64,000 bases of DNA, taken from the IMG/VR virus record IMGVR_UViG_3300037067_004901, positions 41,538-105,537 of that record. The stretch is one strand, 5' to 3'. Below the pieces are notes generated by a model, which saw nothing but the letters and a program-made list of their open reading frames with translations, ran no database searches and was not told where the DNA came from. The position numbers and the translations under genes are program-made. Each line of letters opens with the position of its first letter. Position 1 is the first letter of the stretch. The DNA comes from a virus. Lineage: Duplodnaviria > Caudoviricetes. Positions 15-14,553 of the stretch are shown piece after piece.

Positions 15-392
15 CTATGCGAGTTTCGTATAACACATTACTTTTTCGCTTCTGTAATAATATAATCGTATTTCTACGTTGTTAGGCTTTCGACTTGCAA
101 CTTTGCTCAAAGCAAGTCGCTCACGTGGTTCTATATAGCCGTTCTTCTTACACGTTATCCACAACTGTCGCTTATTCTTCATCTGAACTACTATATCAAT
201 AGCACTATGCGAGCCTGCACTTCGAATAGCGAATAAAACGTCGTTTCTGTTCTTAAATGAGCGCAGTATTCGAAACTCCATCGCTTCACCTAATTTTCTA
301 TTGTTTCGACCGCGTTCTGCGTTCTGTTCATAAATCATTCGCAGGACTGTCTTATCTTCTTTTGCACAGCTTCGCACTTGCGTTCCACTCAT
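15..392 (-). CDS. Hjc-like Holliday junction resolvase / PD-(D/E)xK nuclease
   Basis: G..E..I...F and RSAGSHSAIDIV match the Hjc pattern; the E-x-K motif appears as ITCK. Confidence 0.65.
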   Translation of the reverse strand: MSGTQVRSCAKEDKTVLRMIYEQNAERGRNNRKLGEAMEFRILRSFKNRNDVLFAIRSAGSHSAIDIVVQMKNKRQLWITCKKNGYIEPRERLALSKVASRKPNNVEIRLYYYRSEKVMCYTKLA

Positions 393-796
393 ATGGCTCT
401 CGCTTTCTTTTGTGTTTCTGTATAGTAGAAGTATATCACGAGCGCACAGAAAGTCAATGCTAAATGTTGCCCATCATCACTACAATTACATTTAAGAATA
501 TAAAAAGTTACTTTCTGGGCAATGCGTGAGATAAGCTGATAAATAGGCTTTAAAAAGCGCAGAGAAAAGAGTATAGTATATCTACAACTAAAATGACGTG
601 ATTTGGGTCTCGGGTCTCGTGAGCGAGCCCTTCTCGGATTTTGTCTCAAAAATCAGGTAAAAACCGTTTTACTCGCAAGTCGTTTGTCTTTAGTTCGACA
701 CCCGAGTATCAATTCTCGCAACTCGCAGCCACGTATCGACATACGAATATCGCAACTCGACATTCACCAATCGACATTCACTACATATCTCTCAAC

Positions 797-1432
797 TCTT
801 AACAGTAGATTGGTATAATCCGTTCAACTGTCAAGAGTAGAAAACTGGCTTTCGAGACTTAACTTTCGAGAACTGGCTTTTAATAGTTGGATTTCGACAT
901 TCTATTCTCAACTATATAGAAAGTTAGTTTCTTAACGGAATAGCGGCTATAGTAAGTTCTTAACAGAATGAACTGTAAATATGATACTCGCGTCTCGGCA
1001 ATAGATAAAATCGCTTAAAAACGCTTACATTTTACGCCATTTGCTCTACTTTCTATAGGAACTAACTTTTGTTTACACAAAAAACTCGAAACTCGGATGA
1101 GCTAGTTTCACACTCAAAAGCCAGTTATTTCGCTCGGCAAAAGTTAGAAACTGGCTTTTTGTTAAGAGAATTTTTTAGTTGGTGATGTCCTAGTCTAATT
1201 ACACCCGAGTGCTTTTTTCGGGTGCAGGAAAATACACTGCAAAAACACACAACAAACTACGTGAAAGTGACCAACGGTTACAAAAAAAACGACCTTCCAT
1301 ATGGGTGCCTGTAGGAGTCGTGGAAAATGCTAACCAAAAAAATATCTAACTTTTTATATAAATATATATATTCTTAACAGGAAACTTGTGCTGGTTTTGT
1401 TTAACAGATTTTTATACTTTTAACTGTTAAGA
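797..1432. repeat. Dispersed short motifs AACTGGCTTT (x4) and TCTTAACAG-like (x6), both orientations
   Basis: AACTGGCTTT at 843, 871, 1149 and reverse at 1117; TCTTAAC[AG][AG] at 797, 930, 958, 1372 and reverse at 1159, 1424. Confidence 0.6.
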
Positions 1433-1600
1433 GAATTTGTGTGATTTCCAATTATATAGACATATATCAACATAGTGCTTTTTTTCGTAACTATTGGTCA
1501 CATTCGAGCGTCAAAGTGAAGTTTTTTAAATATCCATTTTTTTTACAAAATAGCTGTTTTTCTTCATTAAAACGATTTTATTTTGCAGGTTAAGATAATG

Positions 1601-1629
1601 TTGACAAGTGTATAGTATTATGATATACT
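1601..1629 (+). promoter_or_regulatory. Consensus sigma70 promoter with extended -10
   Basis: TTGACA-17 bp-TATACT with TG upstream of -10. Confidence 0.8.
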
Positions 1630-1635
1630 TCTATA

Positions 1636-1946
1636 TGTAAGCAGAGAGTTTTGCGACTTCTCTTGTTTACTCATGGTTATCGGTTGTGTTGATTACGAAA
1701 AGTAGGATAATAGTGTAAACTATGTAATTATGAGCGTAAAATTCTACATTGAACGGCGTAGTTGCTCGTAACGTGCTTACCAACACAACTCGTGTTTCGC
1801 GCAGAGTGGACATCGTGTTCACTCGCTTTCGAAGAAGAAGAAGCTGAGAATAGAAAGTGTTGAAGTTGATTCCTCCTTCACGAGTATATTTTCAGTTTCT
1901 TCTTCTTTTTTTCTGGTCAACCTTTTACATTAACCGATATAGCCAC
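1636..1946 (+). ncRNA. Candidate structured ncRNA (~300 nt)
   Basis: Directly follows the promoter, no ORF on the track, many complementary stems including a long-range closing helix. Confidence 0.5.
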
Positions 1947-2061
1947 AATTCGATTAAAATGTAATTATTTTTTTGCGAAAATTGATTGGAAGGATCCTAA
2001 ATTAAGAGAATTGAAAAGTTAGCCACGGTTTGTAGTAGGCTGAGAAAAATGCTCGTTTAAA

Positions 2062-2090
2062 TTGACTTTTAGTTGTATATGTGATAAACT
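2062..2090 (+). promoter_or_regulatory. sigma70 promoter
   Basis: TTGACT-17 bp-TAAACT with extended TG. Confidence 0.65.
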
Positions 2091-2125
2091 ATAAATAAAG
2101 AAAGAAAGTTAAAAATAAAGAAAGG

Positions 2126-2368
2126 ATGGGTTGTTATATGAATAAGATAATGTTAGTTATTAGTATAGCATTAGTTATGCTGTTTGCAAATGAAGCGTCT
2201 GCGCTAAATGTAATGCGTGTCAACGGGTCTGTTACGCATAGAAGTATAAATCGAAAAGAAATGCGTAATATAACAAATCAAGATAGGGTGAATTCATCAC
2301 GTTATATCTTTATAAATAACAAAAAGAGAGGGGGTGAACAAGATGAAGAAAAGGATAAAGCTGAATAA
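2126..2368 (+). CDS. Hypothetical protein with signal peptide
   Basis: MNKIMLVISIALVMLFANEASA resembles a signal peptide. Confidence 0.5.
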   Translation: MGCYMNKIMLVISIALVMLFANEASALNVMRVNGSVTHRSINRKEMRNITNQDRVNSSRYIFINNKKRGGEQDEEKDKAE

Positions 2369-2657
2369 ATATGTCGTGAACACGACTAAGGCTGGAGGGC
2401 TCGTATTTACAGCTTTGAAGACGCTCGCTAATAATAAAAAGCGAACTGACAAAGCAACGTTATCGAGAAGTGAAGTCAATGAATTGAAGAGGGCGAAATC
2501 GAAAGACGCCTTCTTTTCACTTGTTGATAAATATATCGTAGATAGAGCTAAGATTGGCTCTGCGGCAAAACGCGCGGGTCAGACACTAAATACCGGTTAT
2601 GACGCGGCTCATTATCGAGTTGCGAAAGAATTGGGTTTAGCGAAGATAGTAGCGTAA
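2334..2657 (+). CDS. Basic hypothetical protein, paralog of 4169..4588
   Basis: SD GGGGGTG before the ATG at 2343; shares motif TxNTxYDxxHxxxAKxL. Confidence 0.7.
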   Translation: MNKMKKRIKLNKYVVNTTKAGGLVFTALKTLANNKKRTDKATLSRSEVNELKRAKSKDAFFSLVDKYIVDRAKIGSAAKRAGQTLNTGYDAAHYRVAKELGLAKIVA

Positions 2658-2665
2658 CGAGAAAA

Positions 2666-2702
2666 GAGGGGCGAGCGTAGAAATGCGCTCGTCTCTTTTT
2701 TT
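2666..2702 (+). terminator. Rho-independent terminator
   Basis: GC-rich stem with GAAA loop followed by T7. Confidence 0.8.
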
Positions 2703-2784
2703 GGCTTGTGAAATACAGTTGGACGCGCGCTCGTCCAATGACTTTTGCATATTTTGCTCGGTGAAGTTATAGTTAGCCGAGTGC

Positions 2785-2812
2785 TTGACTTGCGCTTTGC
2801 ATAGTGTATACT
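2785..2812 (+). promoter_or_regulatory. sigma70 promoter
   Basis: TTGACT-16 bp-TATACT. Confidence 0.55.
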
Positions 2813-2862
2813 TATAGTAGAAAGCGAGAGAGAAACGAACACAAAAGAAAGCGAGTTGAAAA

Positions 2863-3006
2863 ATGCCAAAATGTAAAGAATGCAAGAAAAGCGACAAAGT
2901 AGTTATTGCGAGTTATAAGTTAAGAAACGGTAAAAAAGATAAGTATTTTGAATGTGAACGCTGTAACTGTGTTGTTAAAAGAATAAGTAAATTTAAAATA
3001 GACTAA
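2863..3006 (+). CDS. Small Zn-ribbon protein (47 aa, not in ORF track)
   Basis: MPKCKECK...FECERCN, two CxxC pairs. Confidence 0.55.
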   Translation: MPKCKECKKSDKVVIASYKLRNGKKDKYFECERCNCVVKRISKFKID

Positions 3007-3016
3007 TAGAAAGGAG

Positions 3017-3211
3017 ATGAGTAAAATGTTTACACAAATACATTATGTAGAAGTAGCAAAAGTTATTAACAAGAATATACAGAAAGCAGATAAAGTTGGT
3101 ATATTCTCGAAACAAGCTGTTGTAAGCGTTGCTGTGGATTTCGCAAAATTGTTTGCAAAAGATAATGCGAAATTTGATGTTATGAAATTTAAGTCAGCGT
3201 GCGGTATATAA
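3017..3211 (+). CDS. Hypothetical phage protein
   Basis: SD AAGGAG; ORF track. Confidence 0.6.
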   Translation: MSKMFTQIHYVEVAKVINKNIQKADKVGIFSKQAVVSVAVDFAKLFAKDNAKFDVMKFKSACGI

Positions 3212-3235
3212 AAATAATCGAAAGCGAGGCGCGAA

Positions 3236-3358
3236 ATGACCGAATTATTAAGATTTGTCTATAAGTTAGAAGCTGAAAGACAGAAGCGAGAGATTAAAGC
3301 GGCGCTCATTAAGTTATTAAAGACAAAACGAGCGAGAAAGGCGGTGGCTAATGTCTAA
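3236..3358 (+). CDS. Small basic protein (40 aa)
   Basis: Fills the gap in the operon; overlaps the next start. Confidence 0.45.
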   Translation: MTELLRFVYKLEAERQKREIKAALIKLLKTKRARKAVANV

Positions 3359-3941
3359 TATGTCGAGATTAGCGCAGGGTATCGAAGAAGCGTGCAATGC
3401 GTGTCAAGATATGAAATGCGAGGGTTGCAAAATTGTTGTAGACATTGGCGACAAAGTAGTTACTGTCAACGGTAAGACGCACGACATTTTGAGCGTCAAG
3501 CTTAAAGAAGAAGTAAAAAAAGAAAAAGTGAAAGAAGCTTGTATGAATTATTCGAAAGGCAAGTGGAATTTCTCGAAGTTAGCACGTTTTTTGAAACACG
3601 TTGCGTGCGTTGTGTTATTGTTGTTAATAACGCACAATGCGTTTGCAGTTGAAATAAATATTGAGAAATTGGCAGACGCAATATACAAAGCAGAGGGCGG
3701 TAGTAAGACTTCGCATCCTTACGGAATATTGAAGCATTACAAGTATACAACTGCAAGACAAGCCTGCATCAACACTATAAAGCACGCATTAAAAGATTTT
3801 AATGAGCAAGGTGACTTTATAGAGTTTTTAGGAAGTCGTTATTGCCCAACACATTGGGAAAATACATATCAAGCTACAAGAGAAGAATATCTATTGAATA
3901 GATATTGGGTAAAGAACGTCAAATACTTCTATAATCAATAA
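3351..3941 (+). CDS. Membrane-anchored lysozyme-like domain protein (putative)
   Basis: Hydrophobic segment followed by AIYKAE...RYCP...WVKNV. Confidence 0.45.
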   Translation: MSNMSRLAQGIEEACNACQDMKCEGCKIVVDIGDKVVTVNGKTHDILSVKLKEEVKKEKVKEACMNYSKGKWNFSKLARFLKHVACVVLLLLITHNAFAVEINIEKLADAIYKAEGGSKTSHPYGILKHYKYTTARQACINTIKHALKDFNEQGDFIEFLGSRYCPTHWENTYQATREEYLLNRYWVKNVKYFYNQ

Positions 3942-4168
3942 AATAAAATAATTTTGGGCAACTAAAAAAAATAACCGATATATTCCTATTACGGTTTGGA
4001 GAAAATATAAACAGGTTATCAACATTTTATCAACAGGAAATCCACATTTAAAAAGTTTTTAAAAAGAAGTTTAAAAAAGAACTTAGGAAGGTTCCTAAAA
4101 AAATAAGCAAAAAAAATTCGAGAAGTAAAAGACAATTTGCGCTTTGTGTTTTGTGTGTGTTTTTATTT

Positions 4169-4588
4169 TTACTTCTTTGCTTTTGCTTTCGTTGTTGTCT
4201 TTGATGTCTTCTTGACTTTCGACATCTTGACAAGCGACGCTTTGACTTCTTTCTTACGTCTATCGTTTGACGCTGTAAAAGCGTCTTTGTTTAAGAGCTT
4301 CGCTATCGACGTATGAACTTTGTCATAGTGCGTGTTTTTCGTTAACATCGCTTTGCGTGCTTGTGCGTCGAGATGCTCGACTAACAAGAACTTGTTAGCG
4401 ACGCTTGTAAACTCTTTGAACGTGCGCGCGCTTTTTAGCTTTGCGCTGTCTTGCGCGTCGAACACATAAGCACGCTTTTCGCTTGTGTTGTCGCTGTATA
4501 AGCGAACATAAGAGAGAGCGACTTTATTTTTTATCTGCGACGCTGTTAAATTCAGCACTTTCAAAATCATCTTTTTGAGTTTTGACAT
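4169..4588 (-). CDS. Basic protein lacking Gly/Pro/Trp/Cys, in GG/CC-free tract
   Basis: Own promoter, Lys-rich tail, paralog of 2334..2657. Confidence 0.75.
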   Translation of the reverse strand: MSKLKKMILKVLNLTASQIKNKVALSYVRLYSDNTSEKRAYVFDAQDSAKLKSARTFKEFTSVANKFLLVEHLDAQARKAMLTKNTHYDKVHTSIAKLLNKDAFTASNDRRKKEVKASLVKMSKVKKTSKTTTKAKAKK

Positions 4589-4748
4589 TGTGTATCTCGC
4601 TTTCTTGCGCTTTGTCTTTTACTTCTCGAACTTTACTTTTTAAATGTTTACTTACTCGACGCTATGCTTTCGCATTAGTTTATAACGTTTTACGTTCAGC
4701 ATTTAAATTTCATTATTTGTTAATGAGCGTTTAACTTCTTATGTATAT

Positions 4749-4776
4749 AGTATATCATATTATATACTAAATGCAA
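4749..4776 (-). promoter_or_regulatory. sigma70 promoter (leftward)
   Basis: TTGCAT-16 bp-TATACT with extended TG on minus strand. Confidence 0.55.
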
Positions 4777-5032
4777 GAATTATTTTATATTTTTTCGTTT
4801 TTATTTTTATGCTAATAAGCACGAAAAGATATAACATACCCCCCAGTTATTTCTCGTCGAGAAAAAAAGTTGAAAAATAAAAATCGATGTCTACTGTATC
4901 TTACACTGAAGGTCCGCATTTTTTGTAATTGTAGTATAGAATATCACCAACTAAATATAATATGTCATATATGTTATTTTTATTATCGAAACTTCACTTT
5001 TATTTCAAAATATATATTTTTTTATTTTTCCC

Positions 5033-5061
5033 TTGACAAAAACGATTTTATATGATATACT
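5033..5061 (+). promoter_or_regulatory. Consensus sigma70 promoter
   Basis: TTGACA-17 bp-TATACT with TG. Confidence 0.8.
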
Positions 5062-5092
5062 TTACACGAAAATAAAAGAAAGGAGTTTATGA

Positions 5093-5398
5093 ATGCATAG
5101 AGATTATGTTTATTATGGACACGATGCACAGATAGATGTGTCAAATGGGGTTTTTCAAAATCCTTTTTCAGTAGAAAGTGAAATTGTACATATACACGAC
5201 AATCCAGATAACATGCGCGCGAGAAGCAAGTATCAAAAAACAAGTAACATAGCAAAATTCTCATCTACAGCAACACTTACAATTGCTGATTTAGAAGAAG
5301 CAAAACGACGCATATCATCTGTTGAATCATCAGAAATTCCAATTGCACCAATACGTTTTATTAATTCTTATTCTATTACAGGCGGTGCTAGCTCATGA
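5093..5398 (+). CDS. Hypothetical protein
   Basis: SD AAGGAG; follows promoter. Confidence 0.6.
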   Translation: MHRDYVYYGHDAQIDVSNGVFQNPFSVESEIVHIHDNPDNMRARSKYQKTSNIAKFSSTATLTIADLEEAKRRISSVESSEIPIAPIRFINSYSITGGASS

Positions 5399-5455
5399 GT
5401 TCTAGCGTCATATCATATATATATTATATTTCGCGCTAGAAAGCATCGCCTTTTT
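5380..5455 (+). terminator. Long hairpin with T-tract
   Basis: AGGCGGTGCT/AGCATCGCCT and TTCTAGCG/CGCTAGAA stems followed by a T run. Confidence 0.45.
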
Positions 5456-5462
5456 AAATTAT

Positions 5463-5538
5463 TGCGGGATGGACAAGTGGTTAAGTCGATTGGCTCATAA
5501 CCAATATATCATGGGTTCAAATCCCATTCCCGCTACCA
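5463..5538 (+). tRNA. tRNA-Met(CAT), initiator-like 1:72 mismatch
   Basis: Cloverleaf, anticodon arm ATTGG-CTCATAA-CCAAT, TTCAAAT T-loop, CCA. Confidence 0.9.
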
Positions 5539-5540
5539 AT

Positions 5541-5816
5541 TTGTCGCTGTGTGTCACGCACTAGAACGCACGATGTTTTTGCTACTCATCGTAGTTATAA
5601 ATCATAGACCCAATGATACATATGTTTAATCATGTAGATGTGTATATCTGAAGCACAGACTTGAAGATATCTAGAGCGACGATTATTTGGGTGCGACAAC
5701 TTTGCCCAGCTATTTAGTTGTTGTATGTATGATTATCTCGATAAGAGCATATACCCGTCAAATAGCTATGGTATACGCGCGGCGGCGTGGAATCGCGTTG
5801 AGCATTGAGACACGCA
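5541..5816 (+). ncRNA. Candidate structured RNA between tRNA-Met and groEL
   Basis: Multiple nested stems and a possible 5'/3' pseudoknot. Confidence 0.45.
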
Positions 5817-5844
5817 TTTTAAAAATAAGAAAGGAGATTTTTGA

Positions 5845-7473
<1,629 letters not shown>

Positions 7474-7504
7474 AATTTTTTTATAGATAAGGAGACTTTT
7501 TTTA

Positions 7505-8332
7505 ATGCAAGTCGTTGATTTATCAAAAAAACAAGAATTAGAAAAATTTGATGTTAAAGTAAGCGAAGAACTTATTGTAGCGATAAGTCAATACAAGAGT
7601 ATTGATTATACAAAATCGGCTATAGAAGCATTAAAGAAAGAGGGCGTTAAGTTTACAACGCTCATTTTGTTTGATGGTAGTTCTGATGAAGATTATGAGA
7701 AAATTCAGAATCTTGCTGATATAAGCATTCGAATAAAGAAACGGATAAATAGCTTACCACAAATATGGAACATCATGTTTGGCGCAGCCAAGCTCACCGC
7801 GGCTAAATATTTGTATTGGCAAGGTTCTGATATGTTATTAAACGAGCATGGTTTAGAAAATATGCTCATGACTATGAAGTTAGGTTATGACGCAGTAAGT
7901 CCAATTAAAATTGATAATGATGTTGAAAGATTTAAAAATTATAAAAGAGTTTATAATCGCGTAATGCGATGTGCTGGTATAAATGATAGCGCATGTCTAT
8001 TTCGTTTAGATAAGCTAGACTTTTTTTGTTTTGATGAAATGTATGCGCCGTATCAATTCGAGACAAGCGCGTTGGGTTATGCGCTGTTTCGTAAAAAATG
8101 CAGAATGTGCATAGATGATAACGCTGTCATATTACATTATTGCAGTAAAGATATAGAGCATAGCCCAAAAGAGCGTGAAATCGGAAGTAAAACTTGGGAT
8201 ATGAAGCGCGATTATTTTTTAAAAGACGCAAGTGAAGATAAGAGATGGTTCTTTGAAAAATCTATAATGAACAGCGAAATCGTAAAAGATATTGGGTTCC
8301 CAGCGCATATTTATTTAGGAGACCCAAAATGA
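7505..8332 (+). CDS. Glycosyltransferase, GT2-like
   Basis: ILFDGSSD and YWQGSDML resemble GT-A motifs. Confidence 0.55.
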   Translation: MQVVDLSKKQELEKFDVKVSEELIVAISQYKSIDYTKSAIEALKKEGVKFTTLILFDGSSDEDYEKIQNLADISIRIKKRINSLPQIWNIMFGAAKLTAAKYLYWQGSDMLLNEHGLENMLMTMKLGYDAVSPIKIDNDVERFKNYKRVYNRVMRCAGINDSACLFRLDKLDFFCFDEMYAPYQFETSALGYALFRKKCRMCIDDNAVILHYCSKDIEHSPKEREIGSKTWDMKRDYFLKDASEDKRWFFEKSIMNSEIVKDIGFPAHIYLGDPK

Positions 8333-9387
8333 ACATACTAGTTTGTGTCGGAGCAAGTGAACCGAGTTATACGAGTAGCAAGAGTTTTATTAGAGCGTTA
8401 AAACGCGCTGGGTATGATGTCAGAACGTGTGGTGCATATTATAAATACGATAGAGAACGCACAGAACAAGTCGATTTTGAATTAGAAGACAAATGTTTTC
8501 CAGAATTATATACATATGAAGAAGTATTAAAAAGCACTAAAGATTTTAAAGCAGATATTATATTACAAATAGAACCACATTTTTATTTATGTGGGGAAAA
8601 ACCAAAAGATATAAAAAGTTATTATTGGATTCTAGACCCACATCGAGGTGGTTATGCATACAGAAATCTTGCTAAACAAGGTGATTTTAATGCATTGTTT
8701 ATGTCGCAAACTTATTTTTCTGATAGTTATTTAGAATTTGCAAAAAAAATTTATTTCTTTCCACAAGCAGTAGATATAGATAGAATTAAATATGATGAAA
8801 ACATTAAAGCAGAATGCGACATCGCGTTTATCGGTGAAACAGGCATTGCAGATAGATGCATGAGATACGACAAACGAGATGCAGATAATTATGAATATAC
8901 GAATTTAATTAATGATAATTATATATTAGATTCAGAAATATATAAAGATTACGCAGAAAGAGCGAAATTGTTAATGTTGTTATCTCGTGGCTTTGATGTT
9001 CGTATATATAAAAAGAATTTTAATACAGATTATTCTAAAATAATACAAAAAGGTAAAATTGCTTTTCATCGTAGTTTATTTAAAGATATAACATTGCGAA
9101 ATTTTGAATCTTTAGCTTTAAAGCGTGCGCTTGTATGCGATTACGTACCGAATCTAGAAAAGTTGATGATAAACTATAAGCATTGTCTTATGTATAAAGC
9201 TTTTGGATTCAATACAGAACTTGAAAACTTTAAACTTGATTATGAACAGGCGAAAGAAGCTGTTGACATTTTGCTAAAAGATGATAAAATGAGAAATGAT
9301 ATTGCAGAGAATGCGTATCAACATGTTATGAAATATCATACTTTTGATAATCGCGTTAAAGAAATGATGAGCGTTATTACGGGATAG
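8329..9387 (+). CDS. Glycosyltransferase (CgeB/DUF3880-like GT-B)
   Basis: DIAFIGE, RNFESLA, IAENAYQHVMKYHTFDNRV. Confidence 0.75.
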   Translation: MNILVCVGASEPSYTSSKSFIRALKRAGYDVRTCGAYYKYDRERTEQVDFELEDKCFPELYTYEEVLKSTKDFKADIILQIEPHFYLCGEKPKDIKSYYWILDPHRGGYAYRNLAKQGDFNALFMSQTYFSDSYLEFAKKIYFFPQAVDIDRIKYDENIKAECDIAFIGETGIADRCMRYDKRDADNYEYTNLINDNYILDSEIYKDYAERAKLLMLLSRGFDVRIYKKNFNTDYSKIIQKGKIAFHRSLFKDITLRNFESLALKRALVCDYVPNLEKLMINYKHCLMYKAFGFNTELENFKLDYEQAKEAVDILLKDDKMRNDIAENAYQHVMKYHTFDNRVKEMMSVITG

Positions 9388-9468
9388 GGTAATTGGTAGC
9401 CCAGCAGACTTTGAATCTGCCAGAACAAAATAGTTCGCGTGGAAGTTCGAATCTTTCTCCCGTAACCA
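9378..9468 (+). tRNA. tRNA-Gln(TTG) with long variable arm
   Basis: TACGGGA/TCCCGTA acceptor, GCAGA-CTTTGAA-TCTGC, ~20-nt variable region, TTCGAAT, CCA. Confidence 0.85.
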
Positions 9469-13029: not shown

Positions 13030-14553
13030 ATGTCAAGATTTAATCAATCTACAAAAACTGTAAAATCTTCTAAAACTGTAAATGCAGAAGGTGCAGAAGC
13101 ATACACTTTAACACCAAAGTTAGAGTTGTATTCGCTTGCTTGTACTTTTCTTGGACAGGATAAATTTTATGAGAAAGCAGATAAGCAATTAAAAAGGCTT
13201 GTAGAACTGATTAAAAAGAATGACCCGGAATTTGTCGCGAAATTGGCTGTATATGTTCGCGAGAAAATGTATTTGAGAACATTACCACTTGTATTGTCTG
13301 TTGAATTAGCCAAAGTACATAGTGGTGACAATCTAGTATCTCGTGCTGTTGAGCGCGTTATACAACGTGTTGATGAATTAACAGAGATACTTGCATATTA
13401 TCAATTTTCAAACAACAGAAAGGATGTAAAAAAACTTTCTAAACTTTCCAAACAAATCAGATTAGGTATTGCAAATGCTTTTAATAAATTTGATTCTTAT
13501 CAATTCTCTAAATATAATCGAGATAATGAGATTAAACTAAAAGACGCTTTATTTATTTCGCATCCGTTTCCAAAAGATAACAAACAAGAAAATATTTTTA
13601 AAAAGATAGTAGATGATACTTTAGAAGTTCCATATACTTGGGAAGTAGAGCTATCGCGTTTAGGTCAACAAAAGTTCGATACAGAAGAAGCGAAAGCAGA
13701 AGCAGTTTCTAAGAAATGGGAAGAACTGATAGCTAGCAATAAACTTGGTTATATGGCTACTCTAAGAAATTTAAGAAATATCTTGGATGCTAAAGTCTCT
13801 ACTATTTATATAGAGAAAGTCTGTCAGTATTTATCGAATGCAAAAGCTGTAAGAAATTCCAAACAGTTACCTTTTAGATTTTTCTCTGCATATAGAGAAT
13901 TAGAAGGGAATGCTTCGAAACATACTGACAAAATACTTTTTGCTTTAGAAGAAGCAGTTAAGATAAGCATAGAGAACATACCAACCCTTAATGGTGATGT
14001 TCTGATTGCTTGTGATGTGTCTGGGTCTATGCAAACTCCTATCTCTGCTAAATCTAAAGTTGAACGTTACGATATTGGGTTATTGTTAGGACAGTTGTTA
14101 AGATTGAAATGTGAAAACAATATACTTGGTATCTTTGGAGATACGTTTAAAGTAAAAAGAACAACTAGCAAAGAACTACTATCGAATACAATGAGACTTC
14201 ACGATATTGAAGGCGAAGTAGGGTATTCTACTAATGGTTATCTAGTGATAGATTGGTTGATAAAAAACAAAGTAGTGATGGATAAAGTAATAATGTTCAC
14301 TGATTGTCAGATGTGGGATAGTAGATATGGGAACACTCAAAACTTCGCTGATTATTGGAGAACATATAAACAGATTGCACCAAAAGCAAAACTTATTCTC
14401 TTTGATATGGCTGGATATGGAAATACTCCTATAGACACAAAAACAAATGATGTGTATTTGATAGCAGGATGGAGTGATAAAATATTCGATATGATAGAAG
14501 CATATGAAAATAAAGAAAGTGCTGTCAAAGAAATAGAAGCGATGGAGATATGA
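13030..14553 (+). CDS. TROVE-domain RNA-binding protein (Ro60/Rsr ortholog)
   Basis: N-terminal NAEGAEAY, LGYMATLRNLRN, PFRFFSAY, vWA MIDAS DVSGSM, FTDCQ, IAGWSD. Confidence 0.93.
   Translation: MSRFNQSTKTVKSSKTVNAEGAEAYTLTPKLELYSLACTFLGQDKFYEKADKQLKRLVELIKKNDPEFVAKLAVYVREKMYLRTLPLVLSVELAKVHSGDNLVSRAVERVIQRVDELTEILAYYQFSNNRKDVKKLSKLSKQIRLGIANAFNKFDSYQFSKYNRDNEIKLKDALFISHPFPKDNKQENIFKKIVDDTLEVPYTWEVELSRLGQQKFDTEEAKAEAVSKKWEELIASNKLGYMATLRNLRNILDAKVSTIYIEKVCQYLSNAKAVRNSKQLPFRFFSAYRELEGNASKHTDKILFALEEAVKISIENIPTLNGDVLIACDVSGSMQTPISAKSKVERYDIGLLLGQLLRLKCENNILGIFGDTFKVKRTTSKELLSNTMRLHDIEGEVGYSTNGYLVIDWLIKNKVVMDKVIMFTDCQMWDSRYGNTQNFADYWRTYKQIAPKAKLILFDMAGYGNTPIDTKTNDVYLIAGWSDKIFDMIEAYENKESAVKEIEAMEI

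Follow-up and report, generated by a model that had tools for sequence, protein, structure and literature searches.

The GG/CC-free transcription unit

The window analysed here, a 64,000-bp stretch of DNA, comprises positions 41538-105537 of a 105,537-bp virus contig rated ~60% complete (IMG/VR record IMGVR_UViG_3300037067_004901, Caudoviricetes). In its early region, between two genome arms and oriented against both neighbours, lies a small cassette made up of a leftward promoter, a long leader, an open reading frame (ORF) of 139 codons and a 3' untranslated region (UTR), and neither GG nor CC occurs in the 743 bp that cover it. Relatives of this cassette, whose DNA was read at 12 loci from metagenomes, are designated by locus labels (L###) and their proteins by protein labels (P####). 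The elements of the cassette are as follows:

4839-4861, minus strand: upstream boundary element, composed of a G6 run on the gene strand (4839-4844) and a hairpin CTCGaCGAG (4853-4861)
4749-4776, minus strand: promoter with a -35 element TTGCAT (4776-4771), a 16-nt spacer and an extended -10 element TGa-TATACT (4757-4749)
4589-4742, minus strand: leader of ~154 nt, A-rich, with AAAGC(A/G) repeats, its transcription start site (TSS) placed from the -10 element
4612-4656, minus strand: 5' arm(s) of a long-range complementarity, located in the leader immediately ahead of the ribosome-binding site (RBS)
4596-4603, minus strand: GG-free Shine-Dalgarno (SD) variant (G)AAAGCGAG, 7 nt ahead of the ATG and kept in relatives
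4169-4588, minus strand: ORF of 139 aa with a Lys-rich disordered C-terminal tail and no Gly, Pro or Trp; homologs P0001-P0016 and P0019-P0025
4098-4135, minus strand: 3' arm of the same complementarity, within the 3' UTR and followed by a U-run
4096-4838, either strand: GG/CC-free tract of 743 bp, with 0 GG/CC observed vs 45 expected
4084-4097, minus strand: small hairpin TAGGAACCTTCCTA with T-runs on either side, read directly, which holds the first GG/CC downstream of the gene
4035-4056, minus strand: distal 3' segment, complementary to 4635-4656 (22 nt, 82%), past the small hairpin and outside the tract

An earlier note, made from the letters of this DNA, had described a tract without GG or CC at 4096-4838 that encloses a leftward promoter, a leader, an RBS and a 139-aa gene devoid of Gly, Pro and Trp. 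Its coordinates proved exact, the translation of the ORF confirmed the missing residues, and a sigma-70-type promoter and a GG-free SD were found within the tract. The tract is bounded by a CC at 4094-4095 on one side and by a C6 run at 4839-4844 on the other (direct reading), and the resulting 745-bp gap is the longest in both the window and the whole contig, exceeding the runner-up (229 bp) more than threefold. The 743 nt contain 130 G and 129 C (35% GC vs 31% for the genome), a composition from which 45 GG+CC are expected (Poisson P ~3e-20). The lowest GG+CC count among 20,000 mononucleotide shuffles of the tract was 24, and the longest GG/CC gap in each of 60 first-order Markov genomes ranged from 158 to 292 bp; no tract of similar length, which the earlier note had named as grounds for dismissing its claim, was seen among these composition-matched sequences. 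No comparable gap was found in the contig for any other duplex dinucleotide step.

Synonymous permutation of the codons, with the protein and its own codons fixed, yielded a mean of 14 GG/CC at codon junctions and a minimum of 3 (n = 20,000), and recoding of the ORF with the codon usage of the genome produced no junction GG/CC in just 0.4% of trials (P(0) 0.004). The ORF itself has 0 GG+CC at its codon junctions vs 14.9 expected, and the 323 untranslated nt of the tract contain none of the ~11 expected. The avoidance acts at the nucleotide level, not at the amino-acid level alone; of the ten duplex dinucleotide steps, one is removed by selection throughout the unit, and a chance origin is ruled out by the mononucleotide shuffles, codon permutations and Markov genomes. 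A cause based on tRNA supply was rejected because codon-level avoidance cannot account for the junctions and UTRs; the phage encodes tRNA-Gly, tRNA-Pro and tRNA-Trp, but also 11 others.

CG and GC dinucleotides are ~2.7-fold enriched in the tract, as are the 4-bp palindromes GCGC (5.7x), TCGA (4.8x) and ACGT (2.7x), which argues that the tract is not the product of general restriction avoidance. Immediately outside the unit the flanks are GG/CC-rich, with observed/expected ratios (O/E, given for GG+CC unless one dinucleotide is named) of 2.4 and 1.3. Since the first downstream GG/CC lies in the 3' hairpin and the flanks are so rich, the desert coincides with the transcription unit. Two further candidates, each tied to a sequence motif, were discarded: the hexamer CGACGC is 81-fold enriched, yet its copies share no common context as iterons would, and avoidance of Rho (YC) sites is contradicted by the frequency of TC on the message strand. 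In the GG/CC-rich intergenic DNA beside the cassette, repeats of the form CCGAT-N3-5-(A/T)(A/T)CCTG occur (window 3942-4095; L004:2800-2900 and 3790-3930), and by their sequence they look like iterons or operators.

The -10 hexamer (4754-4749) and the rest of the promoter sit inside a palindrome AGTATAT-N6-ATATACT. The promoter block GTATATAATATGATATACT is near-invariant among relatives, whose layout is TTGCAT/TTGACA, a 16-17-nt spacer and TGnTATACT, and like promoters are found elsewhere in the window at 1601-1629(+), 5033-5061(+) and 457-430(-). The boundary element lies ~60 nt upstream of the -35, separated from it by an AT-rich stretch; it is conserved in L007, L016, L017 and L004b, and an upstream G6-7 run also occurs in L015 and in the remote locus L021. 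Leaders of relatives are likewise A-rich and 154-193 nt long. They share a conserved box GTTCATTGACAG, of which the window carries the variant CTCATTAACAA after a short insertion, and the window leader folds weakly on its own (z +1.05). An element equal to the hairpin TAGGAACCTTCCTA is present in L017 and L018, and this hairpin is a possible terminator. On the antisense strand within the ORF, a pattern scan located one more hairpin (4269-4285, plus strand: GACGCT-GTAAA-AGCGTC and then a T-rich tail), which by its sequence resembles a terminator for rightward read-through.

The RBS of the gene, GAAAGCGAG, equals the usual AAAGGAG of this phage plus one inserted C, and it could pair with the canonical anti-SD through one bulge. 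Seven copies occur in the window vs 1.35 expected. It precedes this gene and 3-5 other early-core genes, compared with 1/82 left-arm and 3/53 late genes, and marks a small class of early-core genes, AAAGGAG being used elsewhere in the phage. Copies just upstream of ORF starts in the early region are:

399-406, minus strand
1822-1829, minus strand
2848-2855, plus strand
3221-3228, plus strand
4596-4603, minus strand (the gene studied here)

Conservation of the desert and of its complementary ends

Fifteen close homologs of the protein (63-82% protein identity), all of them metagenomic, were retrieved, and a profile search of 1.84 billion representative proteins returned only eight clusters. No relatives were detected by tblastn or pattern scans in isolated phages, IMG/VR or JGI contigs, and no family members in five GroEL-related bacterial genomes. 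Nine close lineages, the window included, are GG/CC-free over the homologous unit, with the following desert lengths:

Window: 745 bp
L001: 906 bp
L007: 783 bp
L015: 1113 bp
L016: 496+264 bp, interrupted by a single GG in the SD
L017: 795 bp
L018: at least 612 bp
L020: 852 bp
L004b: 570+236 bp, interrupted by one CC

The same trait extends to remote homologs of ~25-35% identity, L021 being GG/CC-free over at least 917 bp (up to the contig end) and L022 over at least 453 bp, and Gly, Pro and Trp are missing from the remote proteins P0021, P0022 and P0025 too. Divergence among the nine close genes amounts to 2.44 substitutions per site, or ~1000 events, with synonymous sites near saturation. About 25% of possible changes, whether random or synonymous, would create a GG/CC, yet a single GG/CC is present in 9 x 410 nt, so that the desert, conserved under this heavy divergence, is kept by purifying selection and not by chance, mutation bias or an assembly artefact. 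The third-position GC content (GC3) of the close genes is raised, not lowered. The strong selection over the whole leftward unit that the earlier note had proposed is borne out by these nine close and two remote lineages, the related phages in which it had advised looking for the same desert.

GG and CC are likewise missing from a second, co-transcribed gene of L015 (P0026) and, in L021, from a small additional ORF and a terminator hairpin. P0026 (L015:1076-1330), the second gene of an end-paired cassette, encodes an acidic protein of 84 aa without Gly, Pro or Trp, for which no homolog was found among 5.8 billion proteins.

Locus L004 holds two copies of the family ~700 bp apart. One of them, P0016, lies within a desert and faces against its neighbours; the other, P0015, is co-oriented with its neighbours, and its gene, served by a promoter of its own, a short leader and an ordinary terminator, contains 22 GG/CC and several Gly and Pro codons. 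The relaxed clade of P0015 also includes P0013 (L019, 25 GG/CC) and P0014. These GG/CC-bearing paralogs show that the protein family can tolerate GG/CC, and the constraint attaches to a particular expression cassette.

In the predicted mRNA fold of the window cassette, the leader (4612-4649) pairs with the 3' UTR (4098-4135), and an outer segment (4635-4656) pairs with 4035-4056. The duplex of the arms has a free energy (dG) of -44.7 kcal/mol (z -8.3, 0/200 shuffles as good), the full predicted mRNA folds at z -4.6, and no other long-range inverted repeat that flanks a gene and has a seed of 13 nt or more occurs in the first 20 kb of the window. Complementarity of 23-49 nt between leader and 3' UTR, enclosing the RBS and ORF, was found in 10/10 GG/CC-free lineages, with duplex energies from -28 to -53 kcal/mol and z from -5.4 to -11 (0/200 shuffles in each). 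The 5' arm ends 17-43 nt ahead of the ATG (81 nt in the remote L021), leaving the RBS inside the loop, and the 3' arm begins at the stop codon or just past it; in L015 the arms enclose the whole two-gene operon. Pairing of this kind was absent (z ~0) from both GG-containing paralogs tested, and with 10/10 deserts vs 0/2 such paralogs the desert and the pairing of its ends go together: every fully purged unit has ends that can close it through a 5'-3' helix.

The sequences of the arms vary among lineages, and 13/35 pairs show a change in each arm; pairing between the arms is imperfect (79-97%), with bulges and a second outer segment. Beyond what chance would give, the flanking segments can form a helix of 20 bp or more that is kept through changes on both sides, as is characteristic of RNAs with a long-range stem. 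Mismatches compatible with G:U pairing number 9 in the sense and 5 in the antisense orientation, and the sense duplex is the more stable in 6/10 lineages. Compared with shuffles, the ORF (z -2.6) and the complete mRNA have more structure, and avoidance of RNA structure was accordingly rejected as the cause of the desert.

In relatives the cassette is flanked by genes for an HNH-type endonuclease (P0017/P0018) and a LAGLIDADG homing endonuclease, located at L001:5028-5444 and 6645-7061, L007:1776-2192 and 3299-3715, and L016:1250-1666. Neither the P0017/P0018-type HNH gene nor a LAGLIDADG gene occurs in this window.

Gradient of avoidance and genome context

Over the whole window the GG/CC O/E is 0.93, and the contig contains 4676 GG/CC. 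When genes were grouped into temporal classes (early, replication and late, as inferred from gene content and promoters), avoidance at codon junctions proved proportional to the earliness of the class, with the following O/E values:

This gene: 0 (0/14.9 expected, GG+CC)
Seven early-right genes (15-9387): GG 0.30, CC 0.43
Left (replication) arm: GG 0.60, CC 0.49
Late genes: GG 0.81, CC 0.78

Late genes reach ~0.8-1.2 at codon boundaries, and the avoidance changes sharply near 14.5 kb of the window. In early genes only, NCC and AGG are under-used 3-5-fold relative to the remaining codons that end in C or G; these genes also encode fewer Gly, Pro and Trp residues, and GC and CG rise in compensation. 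The phage GroEL gene (5845-7473, 542 aa) has 51 GG/CC vs 106 expected (O/E 0.48), nearly all of them in obligatory Gly or Pro codons, and its junctions carry 8 vs 32.6 expected. Bacterial groEL loci have a GG/CC O/E of ~1.0, which identifies the depletion as a trait of the phage and not a host signature, and a host-like composition was discarded as an explanation on the same comparison.

The left arm is transcribed leftward and encodes a clamp loader, an N6/N4 DNA methyltransferase, RtcB, NAD salvage enzymes, a peptide deformylase, a pyrimidine-dimer glycosylase and eight tRNAs; the right arm, transcribed rightward, encodes six tRNAs, GroEL, glycosyltransferases and a Ro60-like protein, followed by head and tail genes. 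No close isolated phage was found, the capsid protein being 26-28% identical to actinophage capsids. The phage GroEL has 74% protein identity to that of a Candidatus Omnitrophota metagenome-assembled genome, and its DNA is 67-71% identical to many genomes of this phylum, a similarity that hints at Omnitrophota as the host. A search for CRISPR spacers and host DNA in 401 Omnitrophota genomes returned only the groEL similarity.

Several other features of the genome deserve mention. Between the two arms, ~1.7 kb (393-2125) with a GC content of 0.33-0.39 holds no convincing ORF and no Rfam match; early-type promoters lie at 457-430(-) and 1601-1629(+), and the region could be an origin or a non-coding RNA region. 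A Ro60/TROVE-like gene (phrog_850) at 13030-14553 and an RtcB RNA ligase gene (L012:14392-15657) are found in the same phage. At least 14 tRNA genes are present, and the left contig end seems by eye to cut another, which ARAGORN did not confirm; tRNA-Gln(TTG) at 9378-9468 was called at 91 nt, an unusual length that may reflect an insertion or intron. The replication arm also carries a gene for a T4 endonuclease V-type pyrimidine-dimer DNA glycosylase (L013:11254-11784).

The 139-aa protein is basic, with a Lys-rich tail, and its codons are GC3-rich (GAC, AAC, GTC, AAG, GCG, TCG, AGC), unlike those of the rest of the phage. An AlphaFold (AF2) model, with a predicted local distance difference test score (pLDDT) of 75 and a predicted template modelling score (pTM) of 0.61, consists of three strands, four helices and a disordered Lys-rich tail. 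Invariant polar residues, among them D33, N34, K38, D47, K79, N85-K90, H92 and S107-D109, cluster in SDNxxEKR, NTHYDKxH and ASND. No Pfam match was obtained, residues 71-137 weakly matched phrog_3790, a family of unknown function (E 4e-4), Foldseek against PDB and BFVD gave no match below E 0.01, the best VIA-align Z was 4.8, and an ESM Atlas search returned nothing usable. A distant paralog is encoded at window 2334-2657. Judging from its charge, the protein probably binds nucleic acid. The place of the gene in the early region and its GC3-rich codon usage, unlike that of the phage, make an immediate-early role plausible; in this respect the proposal in the earlier note of a first-expressed factor holds up, and its suggestion of an anti-defence function gains nothing from the searches, which yielded neither a family nor a fold match.

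What may read the GG/CC step

Our conclusion is that GG/CC is read by something already there when infection begins, which interferes with expression, and we favour such interference, whether with the transcript or with the template, over stealth towards CRISPR or restriction. Our preferred reading, to which we give a probability of roughly 0.35, is that of an immediate-early cassette hardened at the message level. A strong host-type promoter would drive an mRNA of ~650 nt, the leader and 3' UTR of which would pair as a 25-45-bp helix around the RBS and ORF, and this helix may protect the ends or serve as a processing stem. Selection has purged every GG/CC from the message, including its SD, codon junctions and Gly, Pro and Trp codons, and their absence would stop an activity present as infection starts from cutting, binding or blocking it. 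The reader would most likely be a ribonuclease or an RNA-binding factor, belonging to the host or to the phage's own host shut-off, and the small basic product would be needed before the other countermeasures of the phage exist. Reading at the message level fits because the desert stops at the edges of the unit, the SD is rewritten, the structure is of an RNA type and the phage is equipped for repairing and surveying RNA (an RtcB ligase, 14 tRNA genes and a Ro60-like protein). The motif is absent from the UTRs (0 of ~11) as well as from the junctions (0 of 14.9), as in a motif-free mRNA. In a broader reading, to which we give a similar probability, an activity not yet described, either a host defence or the 139-aa protein of the cassette acting as a takeover factor, would read the bare GG:CC step on nucleic acid within minutes of the onset of infection, and phages would answer with dinucleotide-free, end-paired cassettes. 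The 5'-3' complementarity, the early/late gradient and the paralog contrast are all additions to what the earlier note contained.

Several points weigh against this reading. Both GG and CC are missing from the message strand, for which one reader of a duplex (DNA or double-stranded RNA) is simpler, we know of no ribonuclease that reads both GG and CC, and no candidate for one was identified in this system. Upstream of the transcribed part, the desert is so rich in AT that it does not separate an RNA-level from a DNA-level constraint, and the TSS, the 3' end and any processing are predicted, as is the timing. Structure in the ORF is no lower than in shuffles, and the arm mismatches do not favour the sense RNA, so the repeat could act as DNA.

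Parts of this arrangement have counterparts elsewhere. The first-step-transfer DNA of T5 lacks EcoRI sites and the leading end of T7 carries gene 0.3 (ocr), so that in these phages, too, first-expressed DNA is free of host-nuclease sites and encodes protection for the rest; there, however, 6-bp sites are missing over kilobases at a mapped end, whereas here a dinucleotide is missing between motif-rich neighbours, in a position known from the contig alone. Messages without ACA resist MazF and those without GCU resist MqsR, and colicin E5, an example of a dinucleotide-specific ribonuclease, reads GU; for motif-free messages of phages, the literature searched yielded nothing relevant. Such messages likewise escape an endoribonuclease by lacking a site of 2-3 nt, but in the present unit the word and its complement are both missing and promoter DNA is included. 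Long 5'-3' helices are known from the rRNA operon processing stems cut by RNase III, the fbi element of hok mRNA and the RNase III sites between T7 early genes, where segments on either side of a functional RNA pair over 20 bp or more and the helix governs processing, stability or translatability; here the putative helix encloses a protein-coding ORF with its RBS, and no RNase III gene is present in the contig. On cytosine DNA, host RNA polymerase is blocked by T4 Alc, and T4 RegB cuts GGAG in the SDs of early mRNAs. Both are made early and distinguish templates or messages through a short chemical or sequence feature, RegB showing that the GG of an SD can be a nuclease target, but neither has sequence or fold similarity to the 139-aa protein, and an exemption of its own gene is hypothetical here. 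None of these systems matches the whole combination.

Interference at the template rather than the message is a less probable explanation. GG:CC on parental DNA, through a phage-made base modification, a host binder or a nickase, would hinder host RNA polymerase; early genes would avoid the step, the first gene fully, and late genes would be copied from new DNA or by a modified polymerase. This would account together for the strand symmetry, the promoter-to-terminator limits and the gradient, in that the classes inferred to be transcribed from parental DNA are depleted and the late class is not (O/E 0, ~0.33, 0.5-0.6 and ~0.8), and the phage does encode three glycosyltransferases and one N6_N4 methyltransferase. 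It leaves the strict coupling with 5'-3' complementarity unexplained, however, and known phage modifications, such as the glucosyl-hydroxymethylcytosine of T4, are not known to stop host RNA polymerase. The base modification at GG/CC proposed in the earlier note agrees with the early-to-late depletion, but genes for hypermodification (DpdA/TGT, QueC, a C5-methyltransferase or a thymidylate-synthase-like hydroxymethylase) were not found in the 105-kb contig, which represents ~60% of the genome. On a par with this explanation, and equally unlikely in our estimate, is that the 139-aa protein, as a host-takeover factor akin to T4 Alc with its restriction to cytosine DNA, itself binds or cuts GG:CC and that its own unit is spared to keep its synthesis unlimited. 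The trait follows the protein family down to ~25-35% identity, in the composition of P0021, P0022 and P0025 as in the DNA of L021 and L022, the invariant polar cluster and Lys-rich tail are those expected of a nucleic-acid enzyme or binder, and the partial depletion of other early and middle genes looks as if it lessened collateral effects. Yet the undepleted late genes would be hit by such a self-exempting reader, the paralogs P0013-P0015 keep all invariant residues in genes with 22-25 GG/CC, and the structure and family searches matched no nuclease or sequence-specific binder.

Somewhat more doubtful is stealth at the DNA level, by which a first-entering, first-expressed anti-defence gene would escape targeting and spacer acquisition by avoiding a CRISPR protospacer-adjacent motif (PAM; NGG, the CC of type I-F or the CCN of types I-A and I-B) or a short restriction or nicking site. 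PAMs are the best-known readers for which each GG/CC on either strand counts, the avoidance is strand-symmetric and depletion is stronger in the early than in the late region; moreover, genome-wide depletion of CC or NGG is documented in phages (PMC12174588, PMC4246573), where, as here, a short motif is selected out on both strands, CC being the I-F PAM. Those cases are modest and genome-wide, whereas here a single unit is fully purged and three amino acids are banned while the flanks and late genes are spared. An island of 0.75 kb cannot shield a genome of ~175 kb with 4676 GG/CC in the contig alone, the L004 paralog with 22 GG/CC lies only ~700 bp from a desert, the whole-window O/E of 0.93 is not that of genome-wide PAM depletion, the enrichment of GCGC, TCGA and ACGT is the opposite of an under-representation of short palindromes, the pairing of the ends is left unexplained, and the host is uncultured, Omnitrophota being only suggested by GroEL. 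The CRISPR or restriction origin put forward in the earlier note is on these grounds a poor fit. It is improbable, too, that the flanking inverted repeat acts as DNA, with the RBS and ORF forming an invertible or mobile cassette and the lack of GG/CC being a separate matter. Inverted repeats of 23-49 nt do flank the ORF in all lineages, with a mismatch pattern that does not favour sense RNA, the cassette always lies against the orientation of its neighbours, and HNH and LAGLIDADG endonuclease genes flank it in relatives. Its single orientation relative to the promoter in 10/10 lineages and in the contigs read, together with the lack of an adjacent recombinase (the only integrase-like gene is ~35 kb away), argues against an invertible element, as do the imperfect, bulged arms with their second outer segment, typical of RNA helices, and arm sequences that are not conserved, unlike the sites of transposases or invertases. 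Local hypermutation, for instance by a CC-specific deaminase, would have a precedent in APOBEC3G-type editing, which removes GG/CC in retroviruses, but it is effectively excluded, as is an assembly or sequencing artefact: the desert recurs in assemblies made independently from many samples, the intact ORF encodes a conserved protein under purifying selection with saturated synonymous sites, GC3 is raised, and the sharp edges match the transcription unit.

Avoidance of motifs by phages is known as a weak, genome-wide bias; in this cassette it is absolute and confined to one unit, and goes as far as excluding three amino acids and altering the SD, which implies a reader that no described system accounts for. 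The signature of a dinucleotide desert with complementary flanks lets such cassettes, and with them probable first-acting proteins, be mined from metagenomes. Should the reader prove to be a dinucleotide-specific nuclease or binder, it would represent a new kind of immune or takeover tool.

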